Positions 4,823 to 40,408 of a DNA stretch of 64,000 nucleotides are shown here, one piece after another (within the stretch, counting starts at the first letter, position 1; each line of letters starts with the position of its first letter). The position numbers and the translations under genes were made by a program. Origin of the DNA: Syntrophales bacterium (GTDB taxonomy: Bacteria; Desulfobacterota; Syntrophia; Syntrophales; UBA2192); contig DAOTMG010000004.1 in assembly GCA_035450185.1 (NCBI GenBank), forward strand, positions 10,046 to 74,045, read 5' to 3'. The notes under the pieces were generated by a model. It was not told where the DNA came from. It ran no database searches and saw only the letters and a program-made list of their open reading frames with translations.

Positions 4823-5758
4823 TTAAAGCAGATCTCTTCTGAAATGTTCCATCATGTCCTTCAAGGATTGATCCTTCTCCGCCTTTTCAGCAAGTAGGGT
4901 TGCTGCCCTGCTCAGTCCCGAGATATCTTTTAGAAGTCTCTTGCTGAGCTCGGTGAGTGTCAGGTTTTTGGATTCGCGGACCAACCAACTCAGCATTGCT
5001 CGGGCTTTAGCTATTTTTTGATTCTTTCCCGTTTCGACCAGATCCTTTTCTTTCACCTCAAAGTGCCGACAGACCTGATGAATCATTTTTTCGATGTCGG
5101 AGGATTTGGTTGTCTTCTGATGAACCTTCTCCAGAGTTGCTTCGAGAAATCTGTCGTTACCCAAGATTCGCCCCTCCGCGGTCCCGCGGTGAAACTCGAT
5201 CCTGCGAGATTCGCCAAGTCCCTCGTGCAGAAATTTCTTGTATCGTTTTCTGGCATGACTGCGACTGTCCGAGAATTGCGATAGAAGACGATCTGTTGTG
5301 AGCCAAGGGTGCCGGACTTCTGCCGAGTAAGATTGTTCACTGCTCCAGGGATAATGCTCGGGAAGAGACGTAAGACCCGCCCGAACAGGGTTTAAATGGA
5401 CATAGCGGATAAGTTCGAGAAGGTAGGAGTCCGCGTCGATCAAAATGGCTTTGTAACGCCCCTGAAAGACGTGACCCGACTTTTCGTTTTTTCGATTGAA
5501 CCACGACGTATAACGCTGACTCAGATTCTGAATGATTCGCGACAACGGTATCTCCCCCACCTCAATCACAAGATGGACGTGATTGGGCATCAGGCAGAAT
5601 GCGTGAATGCGGTGCGCGTAACGTTTGTGACCCTCCTCGATCAGGCGATGAAACCTTAAATAATCCTGATCATCGCGGAAAACAGCTTGCCCTGCGTTTC
5701 CACGCAAGATCACATGATAGACAGCCCCGGGGAAATGAATGCGAGGTTTGCGAGCCAT
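4823..5758 (-). CDS. REP-associated tyrosine transposase (RAYT, IS200-like Y1 transposase) with C-terminal DnaA-C-like HTH
   Basis: 311-aa ORF with HUH motif (MPNHVHLVIE) and the GHVFQGRYKAILIDADSYLLELIRYVHLNPVRAGL block typical of RAYT/IS200 Y1 transposases. The C-terminal part (KNLTLTELSKRLLKDISGLSRA) resembles the DnaA C-terminal HTH. Confidence 0.8.
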   Translation of the reverse strand: MARKPRIHFPGAVYHVILRGNAGQAVFRDDQDYLRFHRLIEEGHKRYAHRIHAFCLMPNHVHLVIEVGEIPLSRIIQNLSQRYTSWFNRKNEKSGHVFQGRYKAILIDADSYLLELIRYVHLNPVRAGLTSLPEHYPWSSEQSYSAEVRHPWLTTDRLLSQFSDSRSHARKRYKKFLHEGLGESRRIEFHRGTAEGRILGNDRFLEATLEKVHQKTTKSSDIEKMIHQVCRHFEVKEKDLVETGKNQKIAKARAMLSWLVRESKNLTLTELSKRLLKDISGLSRAATLLAEKAEKDQSLKDMMEHFRRDLL

Positions 5759-11489: not shown

Positions 11490-13634
11490 TCAGACTTTTT
11501 GAATCGGGATGGATACCCGGAAGGTGCTTCCTGTGCCCGGTTCGCTCTGGACCGTGATTTTTCCGCCCATCTCCTGCACGAGATTATTGACGATGTACAA
11601 CCCGATACCCGTTCCCGTTCCATCTTTTTTTGTGGTGAAGAAGGGAAGGAAGGCATTGTTTCTTGTGTTTTCGTCCATGCCGCAGCCGTTATCCGACACT
11701 TCGATGTTGAGATATCTCCCGTTCTCTGTTTCGCGAAACGCCCTGAGCTTGATCCAGGAGTTTTTTTTGTCCGATGCGTGCGATGCATTGATCAGCAGGT
11801 TGATGAGCACCTGCTCGATCGCCTCAACATCCGCCATGATCGCGGGCAGATCTTCTTCGACCCGTATCTGGAAGTCCTTGACGGTTTTCTTGATCTCGTT
11901 CCTGCAGATGGCAACGGCCCGTTCGATCGGTTCTCCGGGATCCATGAGCTTGATGTCGCTGCCACCCCTCTTCCTAGCGAATCCCGTGAGTTTACTGATG
12001 GTCGCATGGATCCGCTGCGCGCCGTGTTCAATGTTGTCGATCAGTTTCAGCAGGTCTTCATGCAGGTCGATATAGGACATCCCCATGATCTCGGACTGCG
12101 GATTTCGGACAGCCTGTTGCTCGAGAAGAGGAAGGACGGCCTGGATGTAATCCTTCAGAATCGGTATGTTGAAAATGATAAAATTATTCGGGTTGTTCAG
12201 CTCATGGACGATGCTGGACACGAGAAGGCCCAGAGTGGCCAGTTTCTCCCGCTGAAGTATTTCTTTTTCGAGGTTCTTTTCCTTCGTGATGTCGGTGATC
12301 CGGATAATGGCGGATCCTAATTTTCTGTGATCCTCCTGTATGGGATAAATGACCGTCTTCTTGTGGGACCCGGGTTGCCTGGAGGATGAAGATTCAAGAC
12401 TTAGTTTTTGAAAGTCGACGATTGCTGATCGAATCGACTTGAGAGAGTTGTCGTCGTAGCAGCCTTCCACGAGAGATAGGAAAGGTTTTCCGAGAACCTC
12501 GAAATAATCGGCGAAATTGAAGTGGTCGAGAGTACTCCGGTTGGCCATCAGGATATTGAGGTGACTGTCCACCAGAATCAGCGGGTCCGAAATGCTGTCA
12601 AAGACCGAACGGAGGGTGTTTCTGCTCTGCTGCAGCATACCTTCCATGCGCAGGCGTTCCGCAAGCTCTTTCTTGAGCGTTGTGTTGGCATTCGCCAGTT
12701 CTTCGTTGCGTTTCTTGATACGGTCCTCCAGATCTGCATAGGCTTTCGAAAAGGCTCTCTCCGCTCTGCGTCGCTCGGTGACGTCCTCCAGACTCACGAT
12801 GTGATTTTTTTTACCTTCGACGGGCAGCACCTTGATGGTGATCTCCCTGCCGTTCCGGAGGCGAAAGGAGGGCGGGTTTCCGTTTTGCTGCTTCTGTTTT
12901 TTGATGGAGAAAAGCCCCGTCACGCTCGAGCGTTCCCCTTCCTCGAAGTGATCGGTCCACTTCGTTGAGATCAGATCTACCTCGGGCATGCCCAGTATCG
13001 AAACGGCCGTCCGGTTTGCGAAGACGATCTTTCCCTCCTCCGTCAGTTCCACGAGACCCTCCGTCGTGCTCACAATGACGGTTTCCAGATGCTCTCTCAC
13101 GGACAGGAGTTCGGAGACGACGCTTCGGACCGGCGTGCCGGTCGGGTCTGCCATTCGGGGTTTCTTCCTCCCGGACGTTTTGTATTCGAGCGTTGAAAGA
13201 GCCTCCGTGATTTGGCTGAAAGTCTGCGGGAAAGGCCCCTTGGCGATATAGTCGTCGGCCCCCAGGTCGCTGGATTCGACAACGGCTCCGTCGACGGCCG
13301 TGGCGGTTACGATGACGATATGGACATCCCTGACGGGAGAATCCATTTGACGAATCATCCTGCAGAGCCGCTCCCCGCTGGTGTTCGGCATGACCAGATC
13401 CAGAAGCACCGCATCGACCTTCGTGGTCTTCAAGATCTCCAGGGCCCCTGCGCCGTCTTCTGCGGTGAGCACCCCGTATCCCATTTTCCTGAGACCTTTC
13501 GCGACGAGCGAAAGAAACACGGCATCGTTGTCCACAGCCAGAATGGTTCTTCGCCTCGAATCCATCGCGCATTTCTTCCGGCTTTCTGTGTGGCGTGATC
13601 GACTTCGTTTTGCCTTAACAGGACTTTCTTTCAT
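11490..13634 (-). CDS. hybrid sensor histidine kinase (REC-PAS-PAS-HisKA-HATPase)
   Basis: 714-aa ORF with an N-terminal receiver (ILAVDNDAVF...DAVLLDLVMP), PAS-like segments, H-box (SSIVHELNNP), and N/G1/G2 boxes (LINLLINASHA, DNGCGM, GTGIGL). An alternative start is Met at 13565. Confidence 0.85.
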   Translation of the reverse strand: MKESPVKAKRSRSRHTESRKKCAMDSRRRTILAVDNDAVFLSLVAKGLRKMGYGVLTAEDGAGALEILKTTKVDAVLLDLVMPNTSGERLCRMIRQMDSPVRDVHIVIVTATAVDGAVVESSDLGADDYIAKGPFPQTFSQITEALSTLEYKTSGRKKPRMADPTGTPVRSVVSELLSVREHLETVIVSTTEGLVELTEEGKIVFANRTAVSILGMPEVDLISTKWTDHFEEGERSSVTGLFSIKKQKQQNGNPPSFRLRNGREITIKVLPVEGKKNHIVSLEDVTERRRAERAFSKAYADLEDRIKKRNEELANANTTLKKELAERLRMEGMLQQSRNTLRSVFDSISDPLILVDSHLNILMANRSTLDHFNFADYFEVLGKPFLSLVEGCYDDNSLKSIRSAIVDFQKLSLESSSSRQPGSHKKTVIYPIQEDHRKLGSAIIRITDITKEKNLEKEILQREKLATLGLLVSSIVHELNNPNNFIIFNIPILKDYIQAVLPLLEQQAVRNPQSEIMGMSYIDLHEDLLKLIDNIEHGAQRIHATISKLTGFARKRGGSDIKLMDPGEPIERAVAICRNEIKKTVKDFQIRVEEDLPAIMADVEAIEQVLINLLINASHASDKKNSWIKLRAFRETENGRYLNIEVSDNGCGMDENTRNNAFLPFFTTKKDGTGTGIGLYIVNNLVQEMGGKITVQSEPGTGSTFRVSIPIQKV

Positions 13635-13646
13635 CTGCCCCGGATC

Positions 13647-14099
13647 CTAAAGACTGCTTTCAATGACCTGTTTGAGATGTTTCATGGCAACGGGCTTCAT
13701 CAAGATTTTTTTTATTCCGAAAAAGGAGGCTTCCTCGGCTGAAATCAATTCGGTGTAGCCGGAGCAGAGGATGACGGAGATATCCGATCTGATCTGCCTC
13801 AAGTGATCGGCCAGGGTCAGGCCCGTCATGTACGGCATCGTCTGGTCCGTGATGACCACGTCATAATCATCCGGTCCGGCCCTGAAGGTTTCCAGAGCCT
13901 CTACACTGTTTGTTTTCATGTGAACCTGATGACCGAATTGCCGCAGCATCTCGGCGAGATGCAGACAGAATATTTCTTCATCGTCGACGAGGAGAATGCG
14001 CTTCTTTTTCCCTGCCGCAACGCGGTACAGGTTCACCGAACCTCCCGCGGCGTTTATTTCTGTCGAATCGGTTTTTTCGACATCCGGCATAACAGACAT
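13647..14099 (-). CDS. single-domain response regulator (receiver)
   Basis: 150-aa ORF with RILLVDDEE...DVVITDQTMPYMTG...SGY...KP receiver hallmarks. It lies immediately upstream of, and co-oriented with, the kinase. Confidence 0.8.
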   Translation of the reverse strand: MSVMPDVEKTDSTEINAAGGSVNLYRVAAGKKKRILLVDDEEIFCLHLAEMLRQFGHQVHMKTNSVEALETFRAGPDDYDVVITDQTMPYMTGLTLADHLRQIRSDISVILCSGYTELISAEEASFFGIKKILMKPVAMKHLKQVIESSL

Positions 14100-14383
14100 C
14101 TCCTTTATTCTTTCAGCGGTCGAAATCTCTATCCTTCGGGGGACATCAAGAGAATTTTCGCGAAATGTGTTTCAAGATCGCCGGCGCACGGCTGTCTTCT
14201 GATCCGATCGAGCAACACCCTCCACCGTATTATCGTAAATGTCGTGAAATACTTTAAATCCGGCACAATGGATAAAAGTCCGTTCATCGCGAATGGTCTG
14301 ATTTCTTTTTCATGGATTCGGAGGACGGTGAACAAAAAAGGACGGACTCAATCGGCGATGTTCCAACCCCCGGGTTTATCTCT

Positions 14384-14401
14384 GACCATTCCAAAATGGC
14401 A
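14384..14401 (+). promoter_or_regulatory. 18-nt conserved upstream motif GACCATTCCAAAATGGCA (candidate EBP binding site), copy 1
   Basis: Identical 18-mer recurs at 18970-18987. It contains the inverted repeat CCATT-N4-AATGG and lies 178 bp upstream of the -24 element at 14562. Confidence 0.45.
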
Positions 14402-14561
14402 TCCGGGCGCAAATCCTGTGATTTCATTCATTTTTGGGATGCTGTATCCCCAAACGGCACGGTTCGAATCCACCGATGCCGTACCGGTTACCGGAGGGCA
14501 TCTTTGTCCAACTAACGAATTATATTAAGCATTATTCTCCTCAGGGGTCTTATGCGGTCGC

Positions 14562-14576
14562 TGGCACGACCGGTGC
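14562..14576 (+). promoter_or_regulatory. sigma-54 (-24/-12) promoter candidate
   Basis: TGGCACGACCGGTGC fits TGGCAC-N5-TTGC with correct GG-N10-GC spacing. It is 79 nt upstream of ATG 14655 and nearly identical to the element at 19146. Confidence 0.6.
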
Positions 14577-14654
14577 CTAAGTCGAAGGCATTAGAACAGC
14601 CATAATGCCATTGGGCGGTAGCCCGGTGTAGAATCAGAGAAGGACCTCAATGCT

Positions 14655-15098
14655 ATGAAGAAAGTCAGCCTGAGAGGAAAAACAATCACCATCGTCGGGC
14701 CTTCGACCTATGAGACCTTTTTGAAAGCCCATTACCTCACACAGGAAACGGGTGTGACCTTTCGTTTTTTTCGTGGGGAGAAATCCGGACCCCCGCCCGG
14801 CAATGACCCGGTGAGTTCGTCGGTGATCGTGCTTGTCGACTGCCAGATGGAGAAGGTGGAAAACTGCCTGCCGACAATAAAGGCCGATTCGCAGCTGAAT
14901 GGTATTTTCCTGAAGCCTCTCGTGCTTTTTAACGTGGCTCCCGAGGATGTCCAGAAGGGAGAGGCGGTGAACGGCGTGATCAAGGGTCTCCTGTCCCCCT
15001 ATGCTTCGCCGGAGGTCTTCCTCGAGATGATCATTCATGTGGCCTGCGAGGAAAGAAGATCCGCAACGGCAGAATGTGGAGCTTTGAAGCAGACATGA
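14655..15098 (+). CDS. CsgD-type N-terminal (pseudo-receiver) domain protein lacking an HTH
   Basis: 147-aa ORF. It aligns by eye with the N-domains of the LuxR-type genes at 16288 and 19227 (ITIVGP / IIILGS / ICIIGP; VLVDC / FLIDC / FLIDS; LFNV / IFNT / LFNI; GVIKGLL / GVKGIFY / SVQGIFY) but ends before any LuxR HTH. Confidence 0.6.
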   Translation: MKKVSLRGKTITIVGPSTYETFLKAHYLTQETGVTFRFFRGEKSGPPPGNDPVSSSVIVLVDCQMEKVENCLPTIKADSQLNGIFLKPLVLFNVAPEDVQKGEAVNGVIKGLLSPYASPEVFLEMIIHVACEERRSATAECGALKQT

Positions 15099-15697
15099 AA
15101 AAAAGGCGACGGATGATCAAACAAGATGACCCGCATTGCCGGTTGCCGGGTCTTTCCACCCTTCGATCAAGCCGGTCTGTGCCCCCGATAACGTGCCGCG
15201 ACGGGTTCACCTTCATCGAGATCGTGGCGGTCATTGCCATCCTGGGAATTGTAGCGGCCATGGCGCTCCCCAAATATTTCAGCCTTATGAATGAAGCGAA
15301 GCACAAGGTCGCACAAGCGGCCGTCGCCGAGGGCAATGCGAGGGTCAACTTGTGGGGGGTGAGCCAGTATCTGAAAAACGGCGTCTGGCCGACGGTTGAT
15401 CAGTACGAGGCCGCAGCGGATACGATCGGCACCGACACGGGGGAATTTATTATCTCCTATACGAAGGAGGATGTGACCACCCTGAAGATTTCGGCACGGG
15501 GAAGGGCAGCGACGAATTTCGAGGGCATCGAGGCAACGCTTCGAGTCAATCCGCCCGGAAACAGCGGCCCATCGTTGTTTCAGCCCGGAGGAAGGGTTCA
15601 GATGATTCCGAAGAAGGGAAAAAACAAATACGCTGACTTTCGAACAGGAGGGGGAAATGTCCCCGAAATCGACGGAGTCCCTGTCGGGAACCTTTAA
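15095..15697 (+). CDS. type IV pilin-like protein (prepilin N-terminal cleavage/methylation domain)
   Basis: Class III signal G|FTFIEIVAVIAILGIVAAMALP with Glu at +5. ATG 15095 overlaps the upstream stop (ATGA). Alternative in-frame GTG at 15179 would give a 9-aa leader. Confidence 0.7.
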   Translation: MKKRRRMIKQDDPHCRLPGLSTLRSSRSVPPITCRDGFTFIEIVAVIAILGIVAAMALPKYFSLMNEAKHKVAQAAVAEGNARVNLWGVSQYLKNGVWPTVDQYEAAADTIGTDTGEFIISYTKEDVTTLKISARGRAATNFEGIEATLRVNPPGNSGPSLFQPGGRVQMIPKKGKNKYADFRTGGGNVPEIDGVPVGNL

Positions 15698-15890
15698 GGT
15701 GGTGATTGCGGCTGTGGTTTGGGAAAAGCGTTTTGCGAAATTCACCCGGACATTCTCCCGCGATGGAGAGGAGACCCCGGATTCGCAGTGGGTTCCCCTG
15801 GAGAAGAAACTGGAGAGTTATCGCATTGCCGTTCGCGGAAATTCGAAGGTTCTTAAGGGCGATCGCCTGAGCGGGTGCGTCTCCTGTTAG
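15657..15890 (+). CDS. hypothetical small protein
   Basis: 77-aa ORF with a strong SD (AGGAGGGGGAA-ATG). It overlaps the pilin 3' end by 41 nt. No family recognised. Confidence 0.35.
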   Translation: MSPKSTESLSGTFKVVIAAVVWEKRFAKFTRTFSRDGEETPDSQWVPLEKKLESYRIAVRGNSKVLKGDRLSGCVSC

Positions 15891-15929
15891 ACGGCACGGA
15901 ATGATAAGACGAATGAAAGGAAGTCTACG

Positions 15930-16229
15930 ATGATGGAACCGGTAACAAGCTCAGTTCCAGAGATCAACCTGGCCGGCCACAAGCCTTCCCTGATTCTCCA
16001 GAAAAGGATCGGGGTGAAGTATGCGCTGCAGCACAGGATCATCGTATTGAGCGAGTCTGCGGAGCGGATAGAGATGGTGATCGAAGGGACTTCACCCGTG
16101 ATCATGGACGAAATCAGGAAAATGATTCCCAGGGGGAAAGAGGCGGTCTTCTTCAGGGCGGATCCCCGGGAAATCGAAGCAGCCATAACGAAACTCTATG
16201 ACCCTTACGGTTTGTCCCGGTATTGCTGA
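15930..16229 (+). CDS. stand-alone T2SSE_N/MshEN-like domain protein
   Basis: 99-aa ORF. The pattern ...KYALQHRIIVLSESAERIEMVIEG...AVFFRADPREIEAAITKLY resembles N-terminal domains of GspE/PilB/MshE ATPases. Assignment is by eye only. Confidence 0.5.
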   Translation: MMEPVTSSVPEINLAGHKPSLILQKRIGVKYALQHRIIVLSESAERIEMVIEGTSPVIMDEIRKMIPRGKEAVFFRADPREIEAAITKLYDPYGLSRYC

Positions 16230-16287
16230 TCAAAAGGAATCCATTTCAGAGATAGCGATGGTAGTCTCAGAGAGACGGGGTACGATC

Positions 16288-17001
16288 ATGAGCGGTAAAG
16301 AAATTATCATTCTCGGAAGTCAGAACTATCAAAACGAGATTCTGGCCTATTATCTCGAGCATGAAAAGGGAATCGAGTGCCGGATCCTGCCGCCCGATTG
16401 CGGGCTCGCCACGGGACATTCAGGGGCAAACAGGGGGTCACGGCTGTTTCTCATCGACTGCAGTAAGGCCGATGTCGCAAGATATTTTATGCATCCTCCG
16501 CTGGACGGGGACCGTCCTGCCTTCCAGCACCCCGTCTCGATCTTCAATACCCGGCGTGACAGCGGGATCGAGGAAAGGGCCTTGCAGAGCGGCGTCAAAG
16601 GTATTTTTTACGAGGGGTTGCCTCTGAAGGAGTTGATCGAAGGCATCTTCGAGATTTTCAATGGCGGGATCTGGTATCCGGAAGACCTGATGGCCAGATG
16701 GATATCCCGTCATCGACGACGTGATGTCGTGCATGCAAAGGAGAGACCCTTTCTCTCATGTCGGGAAGTCGAAATCATCGGAAAGCTCGCCGAGGGGCTG
16801 ACCAATGACGAAATCGCGGAGCAATTGCACATCAGTCTTTTTACCGTAAAAACGCATCTTCAGAATATTTATCGAAAAATCAAGGCCACAAACAGAACAC
16901 AGGCGATCCTCTGGGCGTTCAAAAACCTTGCCGGAAGCCGGATAGACCCGTCGTGGCCGGGGGAGACAGGTGTCGAAAGAAAAGCTGTTGGCCATCATTA
17001 G
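16288..17001 (+). CDS. CsgD/LuxR-family transcriptional regulator (pseudo-receiver + LuxR HTH)
   Basis: C-terminal LuxR HTH (LSCREVEIIGKLAEGLTNDEIAEQLHISLFTVKTHLQNIYRKI). The N-domain is CsgD-like. The start is ambiguous (16198, 16258 or 16288); 16288 was chosen to avoid overlap with the upstream ORF. Confidence 0.8.
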   Translation: MSGKEIIILGSQNYQNEILAYYLEHEKGIECRILPPDCGLATGHSGANRGSRLFLIDCSKADVARYFMHPPLDGDRPAFQHPVSIFNTRRDSGIEERALQSGVKGIFYEGLPLKELIEGIFEIFNGGIWYPEDLMARWISRHRRRDVVHAKERPFLSCREVEIIGKLAEGLTNDEIAEQLHISLFTVKTHLQNIYRKIKATNRTQAILWAFKNLAGSRIDPSWPGETGVERKAVGHH

Positions 17002-17465
17002 AAAGATTCTGCAAACCGATGAGGATCTAAATTTCCTGCTTCGTCTCGACGACGGGGAACTCTGCAAACTTGTCGTGCTGATGAGACATAGACTCGATCG
17101 GCAGAGCAGCTCCTGAACCAATCCTCTCGCGCCTTTTATTATCGCGGTTAACAGCGGAAAATGACAGGTCATTGCCTGATTTTTGCATGAAACAAAAGGG
17201 GCGGTGATTGTCTGCTTCAAAATGGATTTCTCGTCACGTATCTAATTGAAATTGTTATATGATATCATAAACCCTTGTCGATGGGCGATCATGGCCCTCA
17301 AGGCTGTGCGGGGCGAGGTCTCGCCGGAGGCGGGTCGATCGATCAAAAAATTCGGTAACTCTGCAAAACGGAGACAGGCAGGCTCCGGGAAAAGGGTGTT
17401 TTCAAGGTGGTACCGCCCGATCACCCGAGTTCGGGCAAATCAGGCAGGGCAGACGAGCGACAGAG

Positions 17466-18860
17466 ATGACAAAAGAGCATGACATTTCGGCGGATGTGAC
17501 GATCCTCGCGATCGACGATGAGCAGGACTTTTTGGACAGCGTCAGACGGGGTCTGATCATGTCGGGATTCAAGAAAATCATCCTTTACAGTGACCCGAGA
17601 GATGCTGTGACGTTTCTGGAAAAGGGCGGCCGGGCGGATATCGCCCTCCTCGACATTTCCATGCCCTGGATGAAAGGCACGGAACTTCTCAAATACATCA
17701 AGGAGATCGATCCATCCATCGAGTGCATCATGGTGACGGCAATCGATGAAGCCCGATCGGCTGTGGACTGCCTGAAGGCCGGTGCCTACGACTACCTGGT
17801 CAAACCCTTGGTGAGGGATGACCTGCTCGCAGCGATCCATCGGGTCGCAGAAAAAAGAAAAATGATGGGGGCCCTTGCCCATTCCGAGTCGGGACAGTTG
17901 CCCCCGGGGATCCGCTCGGAGGTTTTCAAGACTATCATTACAGGCTCCGAAAGAATGATGCACATCCTGAAAGAAGCCGAACTTCATGCCCGGAGCGATG
18001 TGCCGGTTCTGATCACGGGGGAGAGCGGAACGGGAAAAGAGTTGCTCGCCAAAGCGATACATCTTGCGAGTCCCCGTGCCCGATCGCCCTTCCTATCCGT
18101 TAACATGGCGGCCCTGACGGGCAACCTCTTTGATGCGGAATTTTTCGGACACACGCGAGGAGCCTTCACCGGTGCGGAAAAGGACAGGATCGGTTACCTG
18201 GAAGCGACACACAGGGGTACGCTCTTCCTGGACGAAATCGGTGATCTGCCCGTCGAAGTCCAGGGGAAGCTCCTGAGAGTCCTTCAGGAAGGCGAATTCA
18301 TCAAACTCGGCACCAGCAAGACCATGAAGGTGGATGTCCGGTTCATCGCGGCGACGAATGCAGACATCGACCACCTGATGGCCAAAGGGGAATTCCGCAA
18401 AGATCTGTATTTTCGTCTGAAGGTCGCCCGGATCCATCTCCCGCCGCTCAGGGAAAGAAAAGAGGACATCCCCTTCCTCGTCGGCGATTTTTTGAAAGGC
18501 GGGCAAGACGGGTCCAGAGGTATCGACGTCGAGGAGAATGCGATGTCTCTCCTGATGGATTACGACTTTCCGGGCAACGTCCGGGAACTCCGATCCATCC
18601 TCCAGACTGCCGTGAATCTCTCACAGGGGAGACGTTTGGCATTGAGACACCTGCCGGACTATGTGAGGAAAGGCAGAAAAACCGCTTCGAAGACGGTTCT
18701 CCCCGATGGACGGTCCGTGATCTCCCTTTCGGAGACGGAAAAATCACACATCCTCAGGGTCTACAATGAAACCGGCGGCAACAAGATGAAGACGGCAAGG
18801 CTGCTTGGCATCGGTCTGAACACGCTTCGGAGAAAGCTGACATCCTATGGCATCAGTTGA
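17466..18860 (+). CDS. sigma-54-dependent response regulator (NtrC family: REC-AAA+-Fis HTH)
   Basis: 464-aa ORF with a receiver (ILAIDDEQDF...DIALLDISMP), Walker A GESGTGKE, GAFTGA loop (GAFTGAEKD), and a C-terminal HTH (GNKMKTARLLGIGLNTLRRKL). Confidence 0.9.
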   Translation: MTKEHDISADVTILAIDDEQDFLDSVRRGLIMSGFKKIILYSDPRDAVTFLEKGGRADIALLDISMPWMKGTELLKYIKEIDPSIECIMVTAIDEARSAVDCLKAGAYDYLVKPLVRDDLLAAIHRVAEKRKMMGALAHSESGQLPPGIRSEVFKTIITGSERMMHILKEAELHARSDVPVLITGESGTGKELLAKAIHLASPRARSPFLSVNMAALTGNLFDAEFFGHTRGAFTGAEKDRIGYLEATHRGTLFLDEIGDLPVEVQGKLLRVLQEGEFIKLGTSKTMKVDVRFIAATNADIDHLMAKGEFRKDLYFRLKVARIHLPPLRERKEDIPFLVGDFLKGGQDGSRGIDVEENAMSLLMDYDFPGNVRELRSILQTAVNLSQGRRLALRHLPDYVRKGRKTASKTVLPDGRSVISLSETEKSHILRVYNETGGNKMKTARLLGIGLNTLRRKLTSYGIS

Positions 18861-18969
18861 ACGTCGCTCGCTTCTGTTGAATATATTTCGGTATCCGGCC
18901 GGTCCCTTACCCGCCGGTTTTTTATATTGCCCGGTCTTCACCCCCCATTTCTTACGGCCTGCCTGAATC

Positions 18970-18987
18970 GACCATTCCAAAATGGCA
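18970..18987 (+). promoter_or_regulatory. 18-nt conserved upstream motif GACCATTCCAAAATGGCA, copy 2
   Basis: Identical to 14384-14401 and 176 bp upstream of the -24 element at 19146. Confidence 0.45.
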
Positions 18988-19145
18988 CAGTGCTTTTAAC
19001 TTACCGAACTCTCGCTGTTTTTAATCGAAGGCGTCCCGAGTCGGCACAGCGGCGGCGTGTCTTAAAAGGAAGAGTCCGAAAAGCAACATATTTTAACTAT
19101 ATAATAATATGAACGATTTTTCTTCAGGTGAGCCGCTGGCAAAGG

Positions 19146-19160
19146 TGGCACGTCCGGTGC
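19146..19160 (+). promoter_or_regulatory. sigma-54 (-24/-12) promoter candidate
   Basis: TGGCACGTCCGGTGC is 67 nt upstream of the preferred start ATG 19227. It differs from the 14562 element at one position. Confidence 0.6.
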
Positions 19161-19226: not shown

Positions 19227-19934
19227 ATGTCGACGGATGACAGTCAGAACAAGCAAATCTGCATTATCGGCCCCCTGAAGGTTCAGAACGATGCGCTGGC
19301 CCGCTATCTAGAGGAAAACCTGGGCGTCGAGTGCACGAAGCTCGCACTGGACGACGGTATGACGCTTCCGGAGAGAGTGCAGGGTAAAAAATCCGTTCTT
19401 TTTCTTATCGACAGTTTCGAAGCAAACCTCACGGCGAAGATATCAGCATTGAAAAACAGGTTCAGAGATGTCCTTTATGAATTCTACATCTGCCTGTTCA
19501 ATATCCGGCCGGATCGAAGCATGGCTGAAGAGACGTTAAACCGGTCGGTTCAGGGGATTTTTTATATCGATGACGATATCCAGAATCTCATCAGAGGCAT
19601 TCAGGCCGTATTCAACGGTGAGTTGTGGATATCCCGTCGGATCCTGACCCGATTGATTCAGAATCACGCGGCGGGACGGCAGGTCGAGGAGGTGAACGCG
19701 GATATTCTGACGGCGCGGGAGATCGAGATCCTGTACCTGCTCGCCACCGGCAAGGACCAGACCGCGATCGGGAATACCCTGTTCATCAGCCCTCACACGG
19801 TGAGAACACATCTTTCCAACGTGTTCAGAAAGATCGGGGTGAGGAACCGGATCGAGGCCAAGGTGTGGTTTGAGAAGAATCGCACGGCCCTGAGGCCGGA
19901 GACGAAAAGGGCCGGAGTCCGGATCGGGAAGTAA
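19227..19934 (+). CDS. CsgD/LuxR-family transcriptional regulator (pseudo-receiver + LuxR HTH)
   Basis: ORF 19128-19934. The start is set at ATG 19227 (MSTDDSQNKQICIIGP) so the promoter at 19146 is not inside the gene. HTH: LTAREIEILYLLATGKDQTAIGNTLFISPHTVRTHLSNVFRKI. Confidence 0.8.
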   Translation: MSTDDSQNKQICIIGPLKVQNDALARYLEENLGVECTKLALDDGMTLPERVQGKKSVLFLIDSFEANLTAKISALKNRFRDVLYEFYICLFNIRPDRSMAEETLNRSVQGIFYIDDDIQNLIRGIQAVFNGELWISRRILTRLIQNHAAGRQVEEVNADILTAREIEILYLLATGKDQTAIGNTLFISPHTVRTHLSNVFRKIGVRNRIEAKVWFEKNRTALRPETKRAGVRIGK

Positions 19935-20039
19935 GATGGAATGTTTTATTTTTCCCTGCCGGCTGCGGTGAACCGAAGAAGCGTAAAAAAGAGGCACCCT
20001 GCGGGCAGGGACAGGAAGCCTATCGAAGGGAAAGAGATA

Positions 20040-20192
20040 ATGACGATGTTCTCATGGTTATCGAGACCCTTTTTCTTCTACCTGCTCCTGTTGTTCATGA
20101 TCGCCTATTACATGTATGACATGGCCTTTGGTGCCGTCTCGGAAATTGCAGAGCACATTGGTGTGTCCGTCTGCCGGTCTATAGGGCCGTGA
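20040..20192 (+). CDS. possible small membrane protein
   Basis: Internal ATG of ORF 19941-20192 gives MTMFSWLSRPFFFYLLLLFMIAYYMY... with one TM. The RBS is weak and there is no homology signal. Confidence 0.3.
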   Translation: MTMFSWLSRPFFFYLLLLFMIAYYMYDMAFGAVSEIAEHIGVSVCRSIGP

Positions 20193-20619: not shown

Positions 20620-21663
20620 ATGACAGCGGTGCCAGATCTAGGTGAAGGCCTGAACTCGCTGAACGGGAAACAGAGAAAAAAGAAGATGGTCGTCTTTTCG
20701 GCGCTCGCGGTCTTCGTGGCCGTGATCATCGTGTCGTCGCTCCTTTATTTCCAGTACCGGAAGACTCACGTGAGCACCGACGACGCCTTCGTCGACGGTC
20801 GCGTTTATCTCGTCGCCTCGAAGATCCCGGGTACGGTGAAGGTCCTTCACGTCACGGACAACCAGATGGTGAAGAAGAATGACGTCCTTGTTGAAGTCGA
20901 CCCCGCCGACTACGATGTGAAGGTGCTGGAAGCACAGGCCGGCTTTGAGGCCGCGAAGAATCAGTTCGTCGAGTTCCAGGCCTCGCTCGAATCGGCCCGT
21001 GCCAACCTCGAAGCGCAGGAGTCCCTCCTCCACAAGGCCGAGATCGATTTCCAGAGGGCCGACTCCCTGGTCAGGGAAGACCTCGTGACGAAGGAATTTT
21101 TCGACCAGAAGAAAACCGGCCTCGATGTGGCCCGGGCTCAGGTCAAAGCCGCGAGGGAACTCGTGAGAAAGACGGAGGCATCCCTGGGAACGCAAAAGGC
21201 CGTCATCCGGCACGCCCGGTCCTCCCTCCAGGGAGCGACGCTGAATCAGAGTTACACGAAAATCTCGGCCCCCGCCGATGGGTACGTGACCAAGCGGAAC
21301 GTGGAGGTCGGGAATCGGGTTCAAACCGGCCAGCCCCTGCTCGCCGTTGTGTCGCTTTCGCCGGGGGATGTCTGGATCACGGCCAATTACAAGGAGACGG
21401 ATCTGACCCGGGTGAAACCCGGCCAGAAGGTCAGGGTCAAGGTGGATACCTATCCGGGCAGGGTTCTTCACGGGAGGGTGGAGAGCATCATGGCCGGCAC
21501 GGGATCCGCTTTTTCACTCTTCCCGCCTGAAAACGCCACGGGCAATTATGTGAAAGTGGTCCAGAGAATTCCCGTCAAAATCGTGCTGGACGAAGCGAAC
21601 CGGAAGGACCCGGTGCTCCGGATCGGCATGTCCGTCGTGCCGACGATTCTGACCGATCAGTGA
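20620..21663 (+). CDS. HlyD/EmrA-family membrane fusion protein
   Basis: 347-aa ORF with an N-terminal TM, then STDDAFVDGRVYLVASKIPGTV...VEVDPADY, a coiled-coil, and ...ITANYKETDL...VKVDTYPG, which is typical of EmrA. Confidence 0.85.
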   Translation: MTAVPDLGEGLNSLNGKQRKKKMVVFSALAVFVAVIIVSSLLYFQYRKTHVSTDDAFVDGRVYLVASKIPGTVKVLHVTDNQMVKKNDVLVEVDPADYDVKVLEAQAGFEAAKNQFVEFQASLESARANLEAQESLLHKAEIDFQRADSLVREDLVTKEFFDQKKTGLDVARAQVKAARELVRKTEASLGTQKAVIRHARSSLQGATLNQSYTKISAPADGYVTKRNVEVGNRVQTGQPLLAVVSLSPGDVWITANYKETDLTRVKPGQKVRVKVDTYPGRVLHGRVESIMAGTGSAFSLFPPENATGNYVKVVQRIPVKIVLDEANRKDPVLRIGMSVVPTILTDQ

Positions 21664-23228
21664 TCGAGGGTGCGGGTCGTATGAACAAGTGGCTCGTCGC
21701 CGTAACGGTCATGCTTCCCACCGTCGTCCAGATCATCGATACCTCCATCGTCAATGTCTCCCTCGATCACATCCGCGGGAGCCTCTCCGCAGGGGTCGAC
21801 GAATCCACCTGGGTCATCACGTCCTATCTCGCGGCCAATGCCATCGTCATCCCGATGACCGGGTGGCTGAGCCGGCTCTTCGGCAGGAAACGGTACCTGA
21901 TGGGTTCCGTCTTTTTCTTCACCCTGACCTCGTTGCTCTGCGGAATTTCCTGGAGTCTCCCCGCCCTCATCGTATTCAGGGTCTTCCAGGGCGCCGCCGG
22001 CGGCGCCCTTCAGCCTCTTTCACAGGCGATCCTGCTCGAAACGTTTCCACCCCGTCAGCACGGGATGGCCATGGCCATTTACGGCATGGGGGTGATGTTC
22101 GGGCCGATCATCGGGCCGCTCCTGGGCGGCTGGATCACGGACAACTGGTCGTGGCACTGGGTTTTCTTCATCAATGTCCCGATCGGGATCGTCTCCATTC
22201 TGATGACCTTCTCTTTCATCATCGATCCTCCCTATGTGGAGAAAAGAAAGATGAAGATCGACTACATGGGTCTGTCGCTTCTCACCGTCGGGATCGGCTG
22301 CCTGCAGATCATGCTGGACCGGGGGCAACGGGAAGACTGGTTTGCCTCCGGCTTCATATTCTGGTTATGCATCATTTCCTTCACGGCCCTTGCCGCCTTT
22401 GTCGTCAACGAGCTTTTCGCGGAGAACCCCGTCGTGCAGTTCAGGATCTTAAGAAACCCGGCCTTCACCGCCGGAAACATCATCGGATTTTTCACCTTTT
22501 TCTGTCTTTTCGGGAGCATCGTCCTTCTGCCGATCTATCTGCAGACCCTGATGGGCTACACGGCCTTCCTGGCCGGTCTCGTCCTGGGACCCGGTGGGCT
22601 CATGTCGATGATTGCCATGCCCATCGCCGGCAGGCTGGTCACGAAAATGAACCCCAGGGTTCTCCTCGGCTCCGGGGTGGCCATGACCGCCTTTTCGATA
22701 TTCATGATGGCGAAGTTCAGCCTCTTCGCCGATTTCGACGCCATCGTCTGGCCGCGGATCGTCATGGGCTTCGGAATGGGCCTGCTGATTGTCCCCCTGA
22801 TGACTCTCACCATGTCGTGGGTGAAGAAGGAGGACATGGGGAACGCCTCGTCCATCTTCAATTTCACCCGGATGCTCGGCGGGAGCTTCGGTGTGGCTTT
22901 TGCCTCCACGGTGCTCTCCCGCAGGGTACAGTTCCATCACTCCCATCTGGCAGGGAACATGAGCCTCCTGGACCGGAATTTTCAGGTGGCCCTGCCGCAG
23001 GTCTCTCAGACCCTTCAAGACCAGGGCTTCGCGCCGGCCCTGCTGGACCCCGGGAGTCTGGGCACCATTTACAAGGAACTGATGCGGCAGGCGACCATGC
23101 TGGCCTTCAACGACACCTTCTATGTCCTGGCGGTGGCGATGACCTGTTCTATCCTCCTTCTCCTGCTCATGCGGAGCAGCGAACATCAGGAGGAAGAGGG
23201 CGTAAGAAGGGAACTGATCCTCGAGTGA
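21660..23228 (+). CDS. MFS DHA2-family (EmrB/QacA-type, 14-TMS) efflux transporter
   Basis: 522-aa ORF overlapping the MFP stop. It has DHA2 motifs (LDHIRGSL, GWLSRLFGRKR, FRVFQGAAGGAL). An alternative ATG is at 21681. Confidence 0.85.
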   Translation: MIEGAGRMNKWLVAVTVMLPTVVQIIDTSIVNVSLDHIRGSLSAGVDESTWVITSYLAANAIVIPMTGWLSRLFGRKRYLMGSVFFFTLTSLLCGISWSLPALIVFRVFQGAAGGALQPLSQAILLETFPPRQHGMAMAIYGMGVMFGPIIGPLLGGWITDNWSWHWVFFINVPIGIVSILMTFSFIIDPPYVEKRKMKIDYMGLSLLTVGIGCLQIMLDRGQREDWFASGFIFWLCIISFTALAAFVVNELFAENPVVQFRILRNPAFTAGNIIGFFTFFCLFGSIVLLPIYLQTLMGYTAFLAGLVLGPGGLMSMIAMPIAGRLVTKMNPRVLLGSGVAMTAFSIFMMAKFSLFADFDAIVWPRIVMGFGMGLLIVPLMTLTMSWVKKEDMGNASSIFNFTRMLGGSFGVAFASTVLSRRVQFHHSHLAGNMSLLDRNFQVALPQVSQTLQDQGFAPALLDPGSLGTIYKELMRQATMLAFNDTFYVLAVAMTCSILLLLLMRSSEHQEEEGVRRELILE

Positions 23229-23291
23229 GCCGGATCGTCCCGTTCTCCGGCTCCACCGCCCGCGGCCGGGAACAGTTCCTTCTTCCCTCAA

Positions 23292-24260
23292 TCAGAACGC
23301 CCTGTAGATGATTTGATCCCGGCTTTTTATCTCTTCGATGACCCTTTCGTGCACAAGTTCGACGAGGTGGACATAGGTTTCGTTCAGGGCGAGGAAGCTG
23401 TCGAATTCGGGCAGGCCGTCACCGAAGATGTCCCTGGATACCTCGAAGGCGGTCTGTGGCCCCCTCCGGACGGATTCGCAAGCCAGCCCTTTCCGGATGT
23501 CGTGATGGGATTCGATCTCCCGGATCCTCTCGGCCAGATTCGGGAAAGGGTCCCCGTGCGCCGGATAGACTTTACCGACGGGGAGGGCCCGGATTCGTGA
23601 CAGCGAGTCGAGGAAGCTCCCGAGAGGCCGAAAATCAGGGAAGAAGATATCGGGGCTCAGGTTGGGTGTAATTTCCGGAAGCACGTGGTCTCCCGAGAGG
23701 AGAAGGCCCTCTTCGGGGAAGTAATAGGAGGTGTGGTCGCGGGTGTGCCCGGGGGTGGCGATAGCCTGAAATTCCGTTTTACCGACGATCTGGCTGGAAT
23801 CGGCACGGAAACACCGGTCGATCCGGAAGGGGCTCCCGGCGGTCTTGAAAGCCTGGAACAGCCGGATGACGAAATTCGTGGTCGATTCCGGGAGCCCGTG
23901 AATCAGGCAGAAGTCCCGGATGCGGCGGATGAGTTCCGTCTCGTCGCTCCGCGCCGAGAGCACTTCCCGGCTGATGTCCGACGCATGGATTTCCGCTCCC
24001 GACAGCCCCTTGATCCGTCCGGCCATCCCGCAGTGATCGAGATGATGATGAGTGATGTAGATCCGGGCGATGTCCCGAACGCCCCTGTGAAGGGTCCTCA
24101 GCGACTCATCGAGGATCACGACCGTCTCCGGTGTGTTGAGACCCGTGTCAAAGAGTGTGATCTCGCCGTTGTGGATGAGAACGAAGACATGCACGTGCCT
24201 CAGTCGGAACGGCATGGGGAGGGTGATCATGAAAAGGTCTTGGGAGATTTCTTCGATCAA
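23292..24260 (-). CDS. MBL-fold metallo-hydrolase
   Basis: HxHxDH motif (ITHHHLDHCG) and TPGHTRDH. The track ORF (to 24683) is an artefactual extension through the PaaI gene. I use the TTG at 24260, which overlaps the PaaI stop (TTGA). An alternative ATG is at 24240. Confidence 0.75.
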   Translation of the reverse strand: MIEEISQDLFMITLPMPFRLRHVHVFVLIHNGEITLFDTGLNTPETVVILDESLRTLHRGVRDIARIYITHHHLDHCGMAGRIKGLSGAEIHASDISREVLSARSDETELIRRIRDFCLIHGLPESTTNFVIRLFQAFKTAGSPFRIDRCFRADSSQIVGKTEFQAIATPGHTRDHTSYYFPEEGLLLSGDHVLPEITPNLSPDIFFPDFRPLGSFLDSLSRIRALPVGKVYPAHGDPFPNLAERIREIESHHDIRKGLACESVRRGPQTAFEVSRDIFGDGLPEFDSFLALNETYVHLVELVHERVIEEIKSRDQIIYRAF

Positions 24261-32378: not shown

Positions 32379-32972
32379 TTATTTCACGAAAGGTGCGGGA
32401 ATCGGGTAGATGACCTTGCCGTAGACGGTGTTGCAGACCACGGCGCCGGCAAGATACACTCCGATCCAGCCGGAAACAATCAGGAGCCAGCCGACGATCG
32501 GCTTGCCGATCGCGGGATCCATCTTGCCCAGGTCGAGACCGACGATGCACCACAGCACGATGTCGATCAGGACAACGAGGATGAAAATGAGCTTGTTGCC
32601 CTTCGCGTAAGCAGGGGTCACGGCGGTGAGGAAGCCGGCCCCGGCCATCCAGGTCCATCCCTCAACGTAGGCGTGAGGAGCCATGCCGAACTTGATCATG
32701 AAGAACTTGGAGAGAACGCTGAGAGAGGCACCGAACATGAAGAAGGCGGAGAAGAACAGGAAGACGTTTCCGCCGGTGACGTTGTGGTCTTTGAGCTCGA
32801 TGACGGCCGTGGTGTACTGGACGACACCGCCGCCGATGAGCCAGGCTGTCAGGATGGGCAGGCCTTCTACCTTTACCCAGCCAAGAAATACTGCGGCGAA
32901 ACCAAAGCAGGCTACTGCGAGAGCCCCGAGTCCCGCAGGAGCGGGAGTTGCAAAGCTATGTTCATGTGCCAT
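32379..32972 (-). CDS. GPR1/FUN34/YaaH-family acetate (succinate-acetate) channel, SatP-like
   Basis: Start at ATG 32972 (AGGAGG 7 nt upstream). Six TM segments and an N-terminal FATPAPAGLGALA variant of the NPAPLGL signature. Confidence 0.8.
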   Translation of the reverse strand: MAHEHSFATPAPAGLGALAVACFGFAAVFLGWVKVEGLPILTAWLIGGGVVQYTTAVIELKDHNVTGGNVFLFFSAFFMFGASLSVLSKFFMIKFGMAPHAYVEGWTWMAGAGFLTAVTPAYAKGNKLIFILVVLIDIVLWCIVGLDLGKMDPAIGKPIVGWLLIVSGWIGVYLAGAVVCNTVYGKVIYPIPAPFVK

Positions 32973-33113
32973 AAAAAATCCTCCTTTTTTGTGGGTCAAT
33001 GAACAAGTAAGAACGGTGGAATGTCAAGACGCTGTATCCTCTTGAAAAACTTTTTCACACCTCCTTTCTCTGTGGAATAGACGCCTTGCCTAAAAAAAAC
33101 ACAATACTCCCCG

Positions 33114-33554: not shown

Positions 33555-34949
33555 TCATTTCTTTAACAATCCAAGACGTTTCATCTGATGGTAGAGGGCA
33601 AGGCGGGGCAGGCCGAGAAAACGGGCCGCCTCCGTCTTGTTTCCGTGGCTCCTCTCCAGAGCCCTCCGGATCAGCCCTGTCTGGAACTCTCTCGTCAGTT
33701 CTTCATAGTTCGCGGCGGATTTTTCATCCAGGAAATCTGCCGGGTCGGGAACCGGAATACTTCTCCCATTGCCGCTCCGCGTCAGGATTTCCGCCGGTAG
33801 ATTCTCCGGCCGGATGACGTTTCCATCCTCCAGGATCATGATCCGCTCGATGGTGTTGAGCAATTCTCGGACATTCCCGGGCCAGTCATAGCGAACGAGG
33901 AGGTCCCTTGCTTCATCGGAGACGGTCTTGAGCGGCTTGCGGAATTCCCTGCTGTAGAGGTGTGTGAAGTGCTCGACGAGGGGCATGATGTCCGCCTTCC
34001 GTTCCCGCAACGTCGGCAGGTGGATGTTGACGACGTTCAGCCGGTAGTAGAGGTCTTCCCGGAACGTGCCGTTCGTGATGGCCGACCTCAAATCCTTGTT
34101 GGTCGCGGCGATGATGCGGACATCCACCTCCATGTTTTTCGTCCCGCCGACACGCCGGAAGGTCTTCTCCTCGAGCACCTGCAACACCTTGGACTGAAGC
34201 GCCGGGTGCATCTCACCGATTTCGTCGAGAAAGATCGTCCCGCCGTGGGCCAGTTCCACAAGCCCCTTCTTGGGTCTCTTTGCGTCCGTGAAGGCACCGG
34301 CCTCGTAGCCGAAGAGCTCGGTCTCGAGCAGGGTGGGGGGAATGGATGCGCAACTGATCTCGACAAAGGGCTGGAAGGCCCGCAGACCGTTGTAGTGAAG
34401 GCATTTGGCAACCAGGCTTTTTCCGGTGCCGCTCGCCCCTTCGATGAGGATCGTGACCGACTCGCTGCTGGCCGCCCGGGTAAGGACCTCGAGGACGTGC
34501 TGGAGAGCCTCGCTCCTTCCGATGATGTTGTGGTAGCCGTAGCGTTGCTTGTTCTTGTGGATGATCTTCCGGAATTCGGGTCGCAGGCAGCGCATTTCAA
34601 GGGCTGTCTTGACGATACAGGCAATGGTCTTCCTCTTGACGGGCTTGTGGATGAAATCAAAGGCACCCATCTCGAGGGCTTCACGGGTCGATTCTACATC
34701 ACCGAAGGCGGTCATGATGATCACAGTGGCATCGTGATGATGTTCCATCAGGTTCTGAAGGACTTCGATGCCGCTCATGTCGGGGAGGCGCATGGCAAGG
34801 AGCGTCAGGTCGAATTCCTCGTTCCTCGTCTTTTCGAGACACTCCAGGCCGCTTCCGGCAAGGACGACGCTGTACCCTTCGCCGGCGAGGGTATCCTTCA
34901 GTGATTCGCGAAGATCCCTTTCTCCGTCGGTGATCAGTATTTTGTTCAT
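33555..34949 (-). CDS. sigma-54-dependent response regulator (NtrC/AtoC family)
   Basis: Start at Met 34949 (MNKILITDGERDL). Receiver (DLTLLAMRLPDMSG), GASGTGKS Walker A, ELFGYEAGAFTDA, and a C-terminal HTH (GNKTEAARFLGLPRLALYHQMKRL). Confidence 0.9.
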   Translation of the reverse strand: MNKILITDGERDLRESLKDTLAGEGYSVVLAGSGLECLEKTRNEEFDLTLLAMRLPDMSGIEVLQNLMEHHHDATVIIMTAFGDVESTREALEMGAFDFIHKPVKRKTIACIVKTALEMRCLRPEFRKIIHKNKQRYGYHNIIGRSEALQHVLEVLTRAASSESVTILIEGASGTGKSLVAKCLHYNGLRAFQPFVEISCASIPPTLLETELFGYEAGAFTDAKRPKKGLVELAHGGTIFLDEIGEMHPALQSKVLQVLEEKTFRRVGGTKNMEVDVRIIAATNKDLRSAITNGTFREDLYYRLNVVNIHLPTLRERKADIMPLVEHFTHLYSREFRKPLKTVSDEARDLLVRYDWPGNVRELLNTIERIMILEDGNVIRPENLPAEILTRSGNGRSIPVPDPADFLDEKSAANYEELTREFQTGLIRRALERSHGNKTEAARFLGLPRLALYHQMKRLGLLKK

Positions 34950-40344: not shown

Positions 40345-40408
40345 CGTCACCCTCCATTCGGGCACACCGAATCTCATATCCATATCTCACAATGGAACAA
40401 GCCTGTCA

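Follow-up and report, generated by a model that had tools for sequence, protein, structure and literature searches.

The locus described here lies in a 64,000-nucleotide stretch of a Syntrophales genome (assembly GCA_035450185.1, contig DAOTMG010000004.1), and this whole stretch is called the window below. Genes were assigned by Pfam and NCBIfam scans of the window proteins. At the locus, a sensor kinase and a single-domain receiver are encoded divergently from two sets of plus-strand genes, each set is preceded by a -24/-12 element of the sigma-54 type with an identical 18-mer far upstream, and the gene of a sigma-54 enhancer-binding protein (EBP) lies between the two promoters (Table 1). The Pfam domains agree with an earlier note on this DNA, which had placed the EBP at 17466-18860 and the kinase and receiver divergently at 11490-14099. 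Our interpretation of the sequence is that the two sigma-54 promoters are co-regulated through a shared bipartite enhancer, and that the EBP encoded between them is quite likely the protein that drives both. For comparison, three orthologous loci, L007, L008 and L009, were fetched from the close group (EBP 83-86% identical).

Table 1 Features of the locus, with positions in the window (aa, amino acids; HTH, helix-turn-helix; ORF, open reading frame)
Feature	Position	Strand	Basis and remarks
Sensor kinase REC-PAS-PAS-HisKA-HATPase, 714 aa	11490..13634	-	Pfam; divergent position kept in L007-L009
Single-domain receiver protein, 150 aa	13647..14099	-	Pfam Response_reg; co-oriented with kinase; conserved in orthologous loci
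Sigma-70-like promoter TTTAAA-18-GATAAT	14229..14258	-	Consensus scan; block conserved in window, L007 and L009
Predicted enhancer site 1, promoter 1	14384..14401	+	18-mer; core dyad TTCCAAAATGGCA at 14389-14401; kept with 1-3 changes in L007-L009
Predicted enhancer site 2, promoter 1	14447..14459	+	TCCCCAAACGGCA, 58 bp past site 1 core; conserved block in four-way alignment
AT-rich spacer, promoter 1	14510..14538	+	AT 0.7-0.8; partly conserved; possible bending site
Sigma-54 -24/-12 element, promoter 1	14562..14576	+	TGGCACGACCGGTGC; conserved in orthologues
Putative operon 1 gene 1, 147 aa, no HTH	14655..15098	+	No Pfam/NCBIfam match
Putative operon 1 gene 2, prepilin-type protein	15194..15697	+	Pfam N_methyl; NCBIfam GspG/IV_pilin_GFxxxE; start codon uncertain
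Putative operon 1 gene 3, 77 aa, no assigned function	15657..15890	+	ORF list; gene called here in most related contigs
Putative operon 1 gene 4, 99-aa stand-alone MshEN/T2SSE_N-like	15930..16229	+	Pfam MshEN 30.3 bits vs cutoff 23.1
Putative operon 1 gene 5, CsgD/VpsT-family LuxR-type regulator, 237 aa	16288..17001	+	Pfam GerE; NCBIfam CsgD 99.9 bits vs 250 cutoff
Putative operon 1 gene 6, 48-aa ORF	16970..17116	+	Called in L007-L009; no family match
EBP gene	17466..18860	+	REC, Sigma54_activat, AAA_lid, HTH_8
Intrinsic terminator of EBP gene	18895..18924	+	GC-rich hairpin then T run; both conserved in four orthologous loci
Predicted enhancer site 1, promoter 2	18960..18987	+	18-mer 18970-18987 and conserved upstream extension TGCCTGAATC
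Predicted enhancer site 2, promoter 2	19034..19046	+	TCCCGAGTCGGCA, 59 bp past site 1 core; TCGGCAC conserved
AT-rich spacer, promoter 2	19086..19124	+	AT up to 0.95; partly conserved
Sigma-54 -24/-12 element, promoter 2	19146..19160	+	TGGCACGTCCGGTGC; conserved in L007-L009
VpsT-like regulator (VpsT-like_REC and GerE), 235 aa	19227..19934	+	Pfam; VpsT-like_REC 42.4 bits vs cutoff 27
83-aa ORF 3' of VpsT-like gene	19941..20192	+	ORF list

The 18-mer GACCATTCCAAAATGGCA was found on the plus strand at 14384-14401 and 18970-18987, and a search of the 64 kb with up to three mismatches gave no further match (dinucleotide-preserving shuffles gave a mean of 0.07 matches). Exact matches to TGGCAC-N6-TGC in the window were likewise limited to TGGCACGACCGGTGC (14562) and TGGCACGTCCGGTGC (19146). 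Both have a GG-to-GC distance of 10 nt, which fits the -24/-12 requirement within TGGCAC-N5-TTGCW, and in both the -12 part is GTGC and not the commoner TTGC. Measured from start to start, the 18-mer precedes the -24/-12 element by 178 bp at promoter 1 and by 176 bp at promoter 2, so the two copies, the nearly identical elements and the spacing were all recovered as the earlier note had described them. The AT content reached its maxima immediately 5' of the -24 elements, with 0.8 at 14510-14538 and 0.95 at 19086-19124.

From the 18-mer through the -12 element the two upstream regions could be aligned almost without gaps, and the alignment contained three extra matching blocks, which were a T-tract, the box TCCC.A..CGGCAC.G and the AT-rich block AACTA...AAT.ATAT.AA..ATT.TTCT. 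The box sits 58-59 bp 3' of the 18-mer core. The two LuxR-type regulators of the locus are paralogues with only 34% full-length identity, and neutral DNA of that age would keep nothing, which argues that the upstream blocks have been maintained by selection. We predict a bipartite enhancer, which consists of the 18-mer and a second box 58-59 bp downstream. Two other candidate elements were discarded. The TGGCA within the 18-mer could in principle be a second -24 element, but it has no GC at the correct spacing and nothing of this kind is conserved, and the inverted repeats 14291/14381 and 18982/19166 are not kept in the orthologues and probably arose by chance. No known RNA family or riboswitch was matched in an Rfam scan of 14-19.4 kb. 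Promoter 1 also carries a palindrome, TGCCT-N7-AGGCA at 14574-14590, which overlaps its -12 element and the expected start site, is present in all four orthologous loci and has no counterpart at promoter 2; it could form a hairpin in the leader or bind a repressor.

The orthologous loci were wholly syntenic with the window from the kinase through the VpsT-like gene. The 18-mer was kept at both promoters with 0-3 changes and was followed by a -24/-12 element each time. At promoter 1 the spacing was 178 bp in all of L007, L008 and L009, and at promoter 2 it was 176, 174 and 174 bp, respectively. Mean column identity in the four-way alignments was 59% and 73%, and the conserved columns were clustered at the 18-mer and the second box, over a part of the AT-rich block, and at the -24/-12 element, while the flanks diverge. 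Thus the layout of enhancer, AT-rich spacer and promoter with conserved spacing, which the earlier note had read as upstream activating sequence, bend and promoter and had proposed to check at orthologous loci, is kept in all three of them (174-178 bp). In the -24/-12 element TGGCAC and TGC were fixed and the five-base spacer varied (GACCG, ATCCG, GGTGG, AGTGG), as one would expect of a sigma-54 promoter. In the promoter 2 region CCTGAATCGACC was invariant in the four-way alignment, and the upstream extension of its site 1 resembles TGCCAAAATAGACC of the Desulfobacterales units described below.

This comparison also changed the symmetry of the site. The earlier note had taken CCATT-N4-AATGG as the conserved dyad, but positions 5-7 of the 18-mer vary (ATT, GTT, ATC, ACC, ACT) with no compensating change opposite, so CCATT-N4-AATGG is not the conserved feature and was rejected. 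The conserved dyad is the terminal 13-mer, T[G/T]CCAAA[A/T]TGG[C/G]A. At promoter 1 the second box of the orthologues (TTCCCAAATGGCA, TCCCCGAATGGCA and TCCCTGAATGGCA) is a second copy of these right-hand 13 bases.

The EBP has an N-terminal receiver domain (Response_reg), a Sigma54_activat domain (E = 1.1e-64) with GAFTGA at residue 232 and the Walker A sequence GESGTGK, and a C-terminal Fis-type HTH (HTH_8), which places it in the response-regulator class of EBPs. It could not be named as a known equivalog, as it scored below every NCBIfam cutoff for AtoC, NtrC, ZraR, LuxO and GlrR (best AtoC, 374.8 bits vs 714). The identical protein was present on at least 22 contigs, including the metagenome-assembled genome GCA_964408505.1, and its close homologues number thousands. 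A close group with 82-93% identity is followed by a drop to 65% or less, and 100 of the 120 best homologues (at least 58% identity) have exactly the recognition helix of this EBP, LGIGLNTLRRKL. By these homologies the protein is assigned to a large Desulfobacterota subfamily. The other two EBPs of the window (33555-34976 and 37192-40383) have helices that differ from LGIGLNTLRRKL.

To find the operator elsewhere, one genome per species was scanned for 185,579 species with the pattern GACCRYYCCAAAATGGCA, which gave at least 119 loci. Among the matches listed, TGGCAY-N5-NTGC was found 153-191 bp 3' of the motif at 14 loci, and the variant CGGCAY-N5-TTGC at 177-190 bp 3' of it at six more. So 20 of the 119 matches listed had a sigma-54 element 153-191 bp downstream, where about 0.3 would be expected by chance according to our own estimate from the information content of the patterns. 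All 20 loci were from Desulfobacterota (labelled Desulfobacterales, Desulfobacteraceae, Syntrophaceae or delta-proteobacterium), and the other matches listed, about 100 from many phyla, had no such element at such a distance. The second box of these operator units lies 57-63 bp past the first and in many cases is palindromic, perfectly or nearly so (TGCCAAATTGGCA or TTCCAAATTGGGA), which means that the core operator is the 13-bp dyad and that the 18-mer of the window is GACCN plus one such dyad. Many units also have an extra partial copy, TGCCAAAATAGAC, 15 bp upstream; the promoter 2 version of it is TGCCTGAATCGAC at 18960-18972, and it is invariant in the orthologues. The distances from site 1 to the -24 element group near 153, 165, 174-179 and 188-191 bp, each group about 11-12 bp from the next, which hints that helical phasing is preserved in the operator units, although the independent lineages are too few to be sure.

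Metagenome contigs were scanned for the dyad with a sigma-54 element 145-175 bp after it, and 119 loci were obtained. A good second box was present at 44 of the 119 (chance background, 6-9 of 13 positions), and at 40 of these 44 it was also at the right offset. The remaining matches, about 75 of 119 with a site 2 score of 9 or less, look like chance, so only the 40 loci were used. The first genes behind these promoters include those for single-domain receivers (followed by a Flp pilin gene), PilZ-domain proteins, an EBP, Hdr-like proteins and MetF. In Desulfobacterales the operator targets were not VpsT-like; they were Hdr-like operons (a 4Fe-4S protein, a CCG-domain protein and a 1011-aa flavoprotein) and MTHFR plus HdrA-like operons, which suggests that the EBP subfamily controls energy-metabolism genes there. 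These loci are not syntenic with the window, as tblastn of the window proteins matched only one of them, L061. MTHFR plus HdrA-like operons were seen at L010, L036, L059, L068, L110 and L114, and Hdr-like operons at L011, L048, L067, L071, L074, L080, L089, L106, L107, L117 and L128. The HdrA-like gene has an in-frame TGA at L010 (5000-5233), L068 (2303-2536), L110 (6327-6560) and L114 (7190-7423; all in motif-strand coordinates), and the L071 homologue has Cys at this position (DCSMCMISPK vs DCAM*IISPK), which is consistent with a selenocysteine codon.

The connection between the EBP and the operator was examined with six distant members of the subfamily (L129-L134, 60-65% identity), which were looked up in their contigs. 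Four of the six (L130, L131, L132 and L133) had a two-box operator with a sigma-54 promoter beside the EBP gene, and at L129 and L134 no clear operator was found. At L130 the two-box operator comes about 350 bp after the EBP gene, with the sigma-54 element 165 bp from site 1, and next are a PAS-REC gene and a GerE regulator. L131 has the same arrangement 3' of its EBP gene and a second such promoter 5' of an MshEN-like gene and a GerE regulator, a pair that echoes operon 1 of the window. At L133 TGCCAAAATGGCA comes after the EBP gene, then TTCCATATTGGCA 59 bp further on and then TGGCACGATAGGTGC, behind which lie a receiver gene and a Flp/Tad pilus cluster. L132 has two operator promoters, one before the EBP gene itself and one before a receiver-kinase/Hpt/CheA-like operon. 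The EBPs of L130-L133, which are 62-65% identical to that of the window, carry the same recognition helix. Our main argument, a comparative one, for binding of the 18-mer by the EBP at 17466-18860 is that operator and EBP gene adjoin each other repeatedly in varied gene surroundings and that the helix is conserved. The earlier note had advanced such binding as an inference, and we regard it as likely, and as well supported by comparison, now that the same layout has been found next to distant EBPs of the same subfamily.

The genes behind the two promoters differ in their arrangement. The six ORFs behind promoter 1 follow each other at short distances, a convincing terminator was not detected among them, and they likely form one operon. 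The earlier note had spoken of two CsgD/LuxR-type loci, and both regulators were confirmed, but promoter 1 directly precedes the 147-aa gene, and its LuxR-type gene is the fifth of six and starts 1.7 kb away. The 147-aa protein is remotely similar to the VpsT-like protein in the half that resembles a receiver (BLASTP, 21% identity, E = 2e-4), and the prepilin-type protein has the N-terminal methylation motif G|FTFIE. At the other side, a conserved terminator closes the EBP gene, so promoter 2 begins a separate transcription unit and is predicted to drive the VpsT-like gene directly. A small ORF at the position of the 83-aa ORF was called in the exact-match contigs, L007 and L008 and was not called in L009.

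Membership of the two regulators in the CsgD/VpsT subfamily is indicated by GerE and VpsT-like_REC in the 19227-19934 protein and by GerE in the 16288-17001 protein, and CsgD was the best NCBIfam match for both, each time under the equivalog cutoff. The closest solved structure to the 19227-19934 protein was Vibrio cholerae VpsT (3KLN, E = 8.6e-24). The published motif for binding of cyclic di-GMP (c-di-GMP) is W[F/L/M][T/S]R (PMC10333796). The strict motif was not present in the 19227-19934 protein, its orthologues or its paralogue; WISR of this protein aligns with WLTR of VpsT, and the orthologues have WIPR and the paralogue WYPE or WFPE.

The kinase at 11490-13634 is a candidate for the cognate kinase of the EBP. 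The receiver/kinase operon is probably served by the sigma-70-like promoter TTTAAA-18-GATAAT, and with a promoter of its own it would escape control by the sigma-54 enhancer. The intergenic region of about 350 bp upstream of the EBP gene contains the block TTGCCYGATTTTTGCAT (17172-17188) and a TTGAAAT motif (17247-17253), both invariant in the four orthologous loci, and the remainder of this region diverges. Block and motif fit neither a sigma-54 promoter nor a clean sigma-70 promoter, and they may be the EBP gene's own promoter or the operator of another factor. Autoregulation of the EBP through an operator 5' of its gene was considered and rejected for the window lineage, which has none there (L132 has one).

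Several observations weigh against our interpretation. The window kinase does not adjoin the EBP gene, unlike at L130, L131, L133 and L134. The sites 2 of the window lineage fit the 13-bp dyad at only 9 of 13 positions. The earlier note had suggested that the AT-rich tracts could be bends made by integration host factor (IHF), and the AT maxima are indeed present and partly conserved, but the strict IHF consensus (WATCAANNNNTTR) was not found between enhancer and promoter, where only matches with two mismatches occurred. The rpoN and ihf genes are absent from the 64-kb window, though the three EBP genes in it imply that the genome has rpoN. At L061 the neighbouring EBP has a helix that differs from LGIGLNTLRRKL. 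Some Desulfobacterales operator loci have no EBP inside the fetched 8-kb stretch, which means that adjacency is not universal and that a paralogue could be the binder.

This last point leads to the strongest alternative, in which the sigma-54 architecture is genuine but its activator is an EBP of the same subfamily encoded elsewhere, and the local EBP has other targets. The size of the subfamily and the same helix in so many of its members speak for it, as do the operators without a nearby EBP and the orphan member L129, which has no operator nearby. However, the EBP gene adjoins operator promoters in all four orthologous loci and in four of the six distant members, and the close orthologue group (82-93%) is clearly apart from the next matches (65% or less), so we consider this alternative unlikely. 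More improbable still is autoregulation, with the CsgD/VpsT-like LuxR regulators themselves, and not the EBP, binding the 18-mer as their operator. Such regulators are encoded in both units, and LuxR-type proteins bind short dyads, which we counted in its favor. But the same operator with the same spacing precedes Hdr-like, MetF, PilZ and receiver/Flp-pilus genes with no VpsT-like gene seen in the DNA examined, enhancers typically lie at such a distance upstream (about 175 bp), and the operator tracks the EBP subfamily. That the shared sequence has no regulatory function and is left over from an ancient duplication, or belongs to a small family of repeats, is hardly credible even though the two regulators are paralogues, since neutral DNA at 34% protein identity would keep no exact 18-mer, the 64 kb hold two copies only, discrete blocks are conserved across species between diverging flanks, and the layout recurs across orders.

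Control of both promoters by the local EBP would work as follows. A signal would reach the PAS kinase, which would phosphorylate the receiver domain of the EBP, possibly via the single-domain receiver. The EBP would then assemble on site 1 (core TTCCAAAATGGCA) and, 58-59 bp further downstream, on site 2, and would reach the sigma-54 holoenzyme about 175 bp from site 1 by looping over the AT-rich spacer, and its ATP hydrolysis would open the closed complex at both promoters. The first output unit would supply the VpsT-receiver-like protein, the prepilin-type protein, two small proteins, the MshEN-like protein and the CsgD/VpsT-family regulator, and the second the VpsT-like regulator. Thus the EBP would stand atop a two-tier cascade, in which the LuxR-type regulators would act on further targets. 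Observed are the elements themselves with their spacing and conservation, the protein domains and the co-occurrence of the EBP subfamily with the operator, whereas we infer the binding, the kinase pairing, the looping and any involvement of IHF, the operon structure and the downstream biology.

Some neighboring features of the window were also recorded. HlyD-type membrane-fusion and MFS transporter genes (20620-23311) follow the locus in the window and L007 and are missing in L008 and L009, where an aldo-keto reductase gene comes directly after the VpsT-like unit, so the HlyD/MFS genes are probably outside the conserved unit. A third sigma-54 element, TGGCATCTCCTTTGC (33354-33340, minus strand), lies 200 bp 3' of the EBP gene 33555-34976 (minus strand) and 5' of a gene for a 206-aa membrane protein (32379-32999, minus strand), and this element is without a two-box operator. 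The EBP at 37192-40383 carries TPR and GAF domains. The gene at 4823-5758 (minus strand), which also borders the locus in L007, encodes a Y1 transposase of the IS200-like type with a fused DnaA C-terminal HTH, and a group II intron domain fragment (62104-62262) and a tRNA (62637-62709) were found near the end of the window.

Beyond this locus we propose tentatively, and with slightly more doubt than belief, that the EBP represents an undescribed Desulfobacterota-wide subfamily with a fixed helix (LGIGLNTLRRKL), a fixed two-box operator (13-bp dyads about 59 bp apart, about 165-190 bp from the sigma-54 promoter) and lineage-specific outputs, and that the window shows a truly sigma-54-dependent counterpart of the Vibrio VpsR->VpsT cascade. 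If this is true, the outputs of the Syntrophales type would concern surface behavior and second messengers (VpsT-like, PilZ, MshEN-like, Flp or type IV pili), and those of Desulfobacterales would be operons of energy metabolism, Hdr-like and MetF. What the locus offers is a concrete regulatory map, with a sensor kinase, an EBP, two sigma-54 promoters, two CsgD/VpsT-type regulators and pilin-like proteins, for an uncultured syntrophic bacterium that is common in anaerobic digesters. The layout of operator and promoter can be searched for across Desulfobacterota, which would permit regulon prediction for the abundant anonymous "AtoC/NtrC-like" proteins; a defined layout of this kind for an abundant unnamed EBP subfamily is what the analysis adds.

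Compared with known systems, the design of the switch is classical NtrC-type with no new mechanism, and what is unusual is the class of targets. The NtrC operator is TGCACC-N5-GGTGCA. As in NtrB/NtrC (e.g., glnAp2), a REC-AAA+-Fis-type HTH EBP is combined with tandem dyads more than 100 bp 5' of GG-N10-GC and a bendable region between them. Unlike in that system, the operator here is T[G/T]CCAAA[A/T]TGG[C/G]A, the sites are more distant, at about 115 and 173 bp upstream, regulators and pilin-like proteins take the place of nitrogen genes as targets, and the EBP is under the NCBIfam cutoffs for NtrC, AtoC and ZraR. In PilS/PilR -> pilA, too, a kinase and an EBP act through a sigma-54 promoter before a cluster with a prepilin-type gene, and relatives of the window EBP adjoin Flp/Tad and type IV pilus genes; but the pilin-like gene here is second in its operon, behind the VpsT-receiver-like gene, and the kinase is soluble and of the PAS type, with no PilS-like membrane domain detected. 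In Burkholderia cenocepacia, the sigma-54 EBP BerB turns on with RpoN a second-tier biofilm transcription factor, BerA (PMC5552954). BerB acts as a c-di-GMP effector and BerA resembles CRP, whereas the proteins here are a phospho-receiver EBP and a LuxR/VpsT-like second tier. According to a comparative reconstruction, Desulfovibrio vulgaris has EBP genes beside sigma-54 promoters with lineage-conserved upstream motifs, and its EBP regulons are small, often of 1-4 operons (PMC4641369). The co-localization of EBP genes, sigma-54 promoters and conserved upstream motifs is the same here, but those regulons belong to Desulfovibrionales and the subfamily here to Syntrophales and Desulfobacterales.

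The nearest functional analogy is Vibrio cholerae VpsR -> VpsT, in which an NtrC-family response regulator likewise stands above a regulator of the VpsT/CsgD family. In VpsR the residues for sigma-54 contact are missing, and the protein works together with c-di-GMP and the sigma-70 polymerase (PMC6158489). Unlike in VpsR, GAFTGA is intact here and the promoters are of the -24/-12 type, so the window EBP is not VpsR-like in mechanism and the cascade would be truly sigma-54-dependent. A search of the open-access literature, which was of limited reach, found no paper on a sigma-54 promoter of a csgD/vpsT homologue, in line with the earlier note, which had called such control uncommon. The comparison suggests that the arrangement of a VpsT-like regulator under an NtrC-family protein is not confined to Vibrio, and that the canonical sigma-54 mechanism is used for it here.

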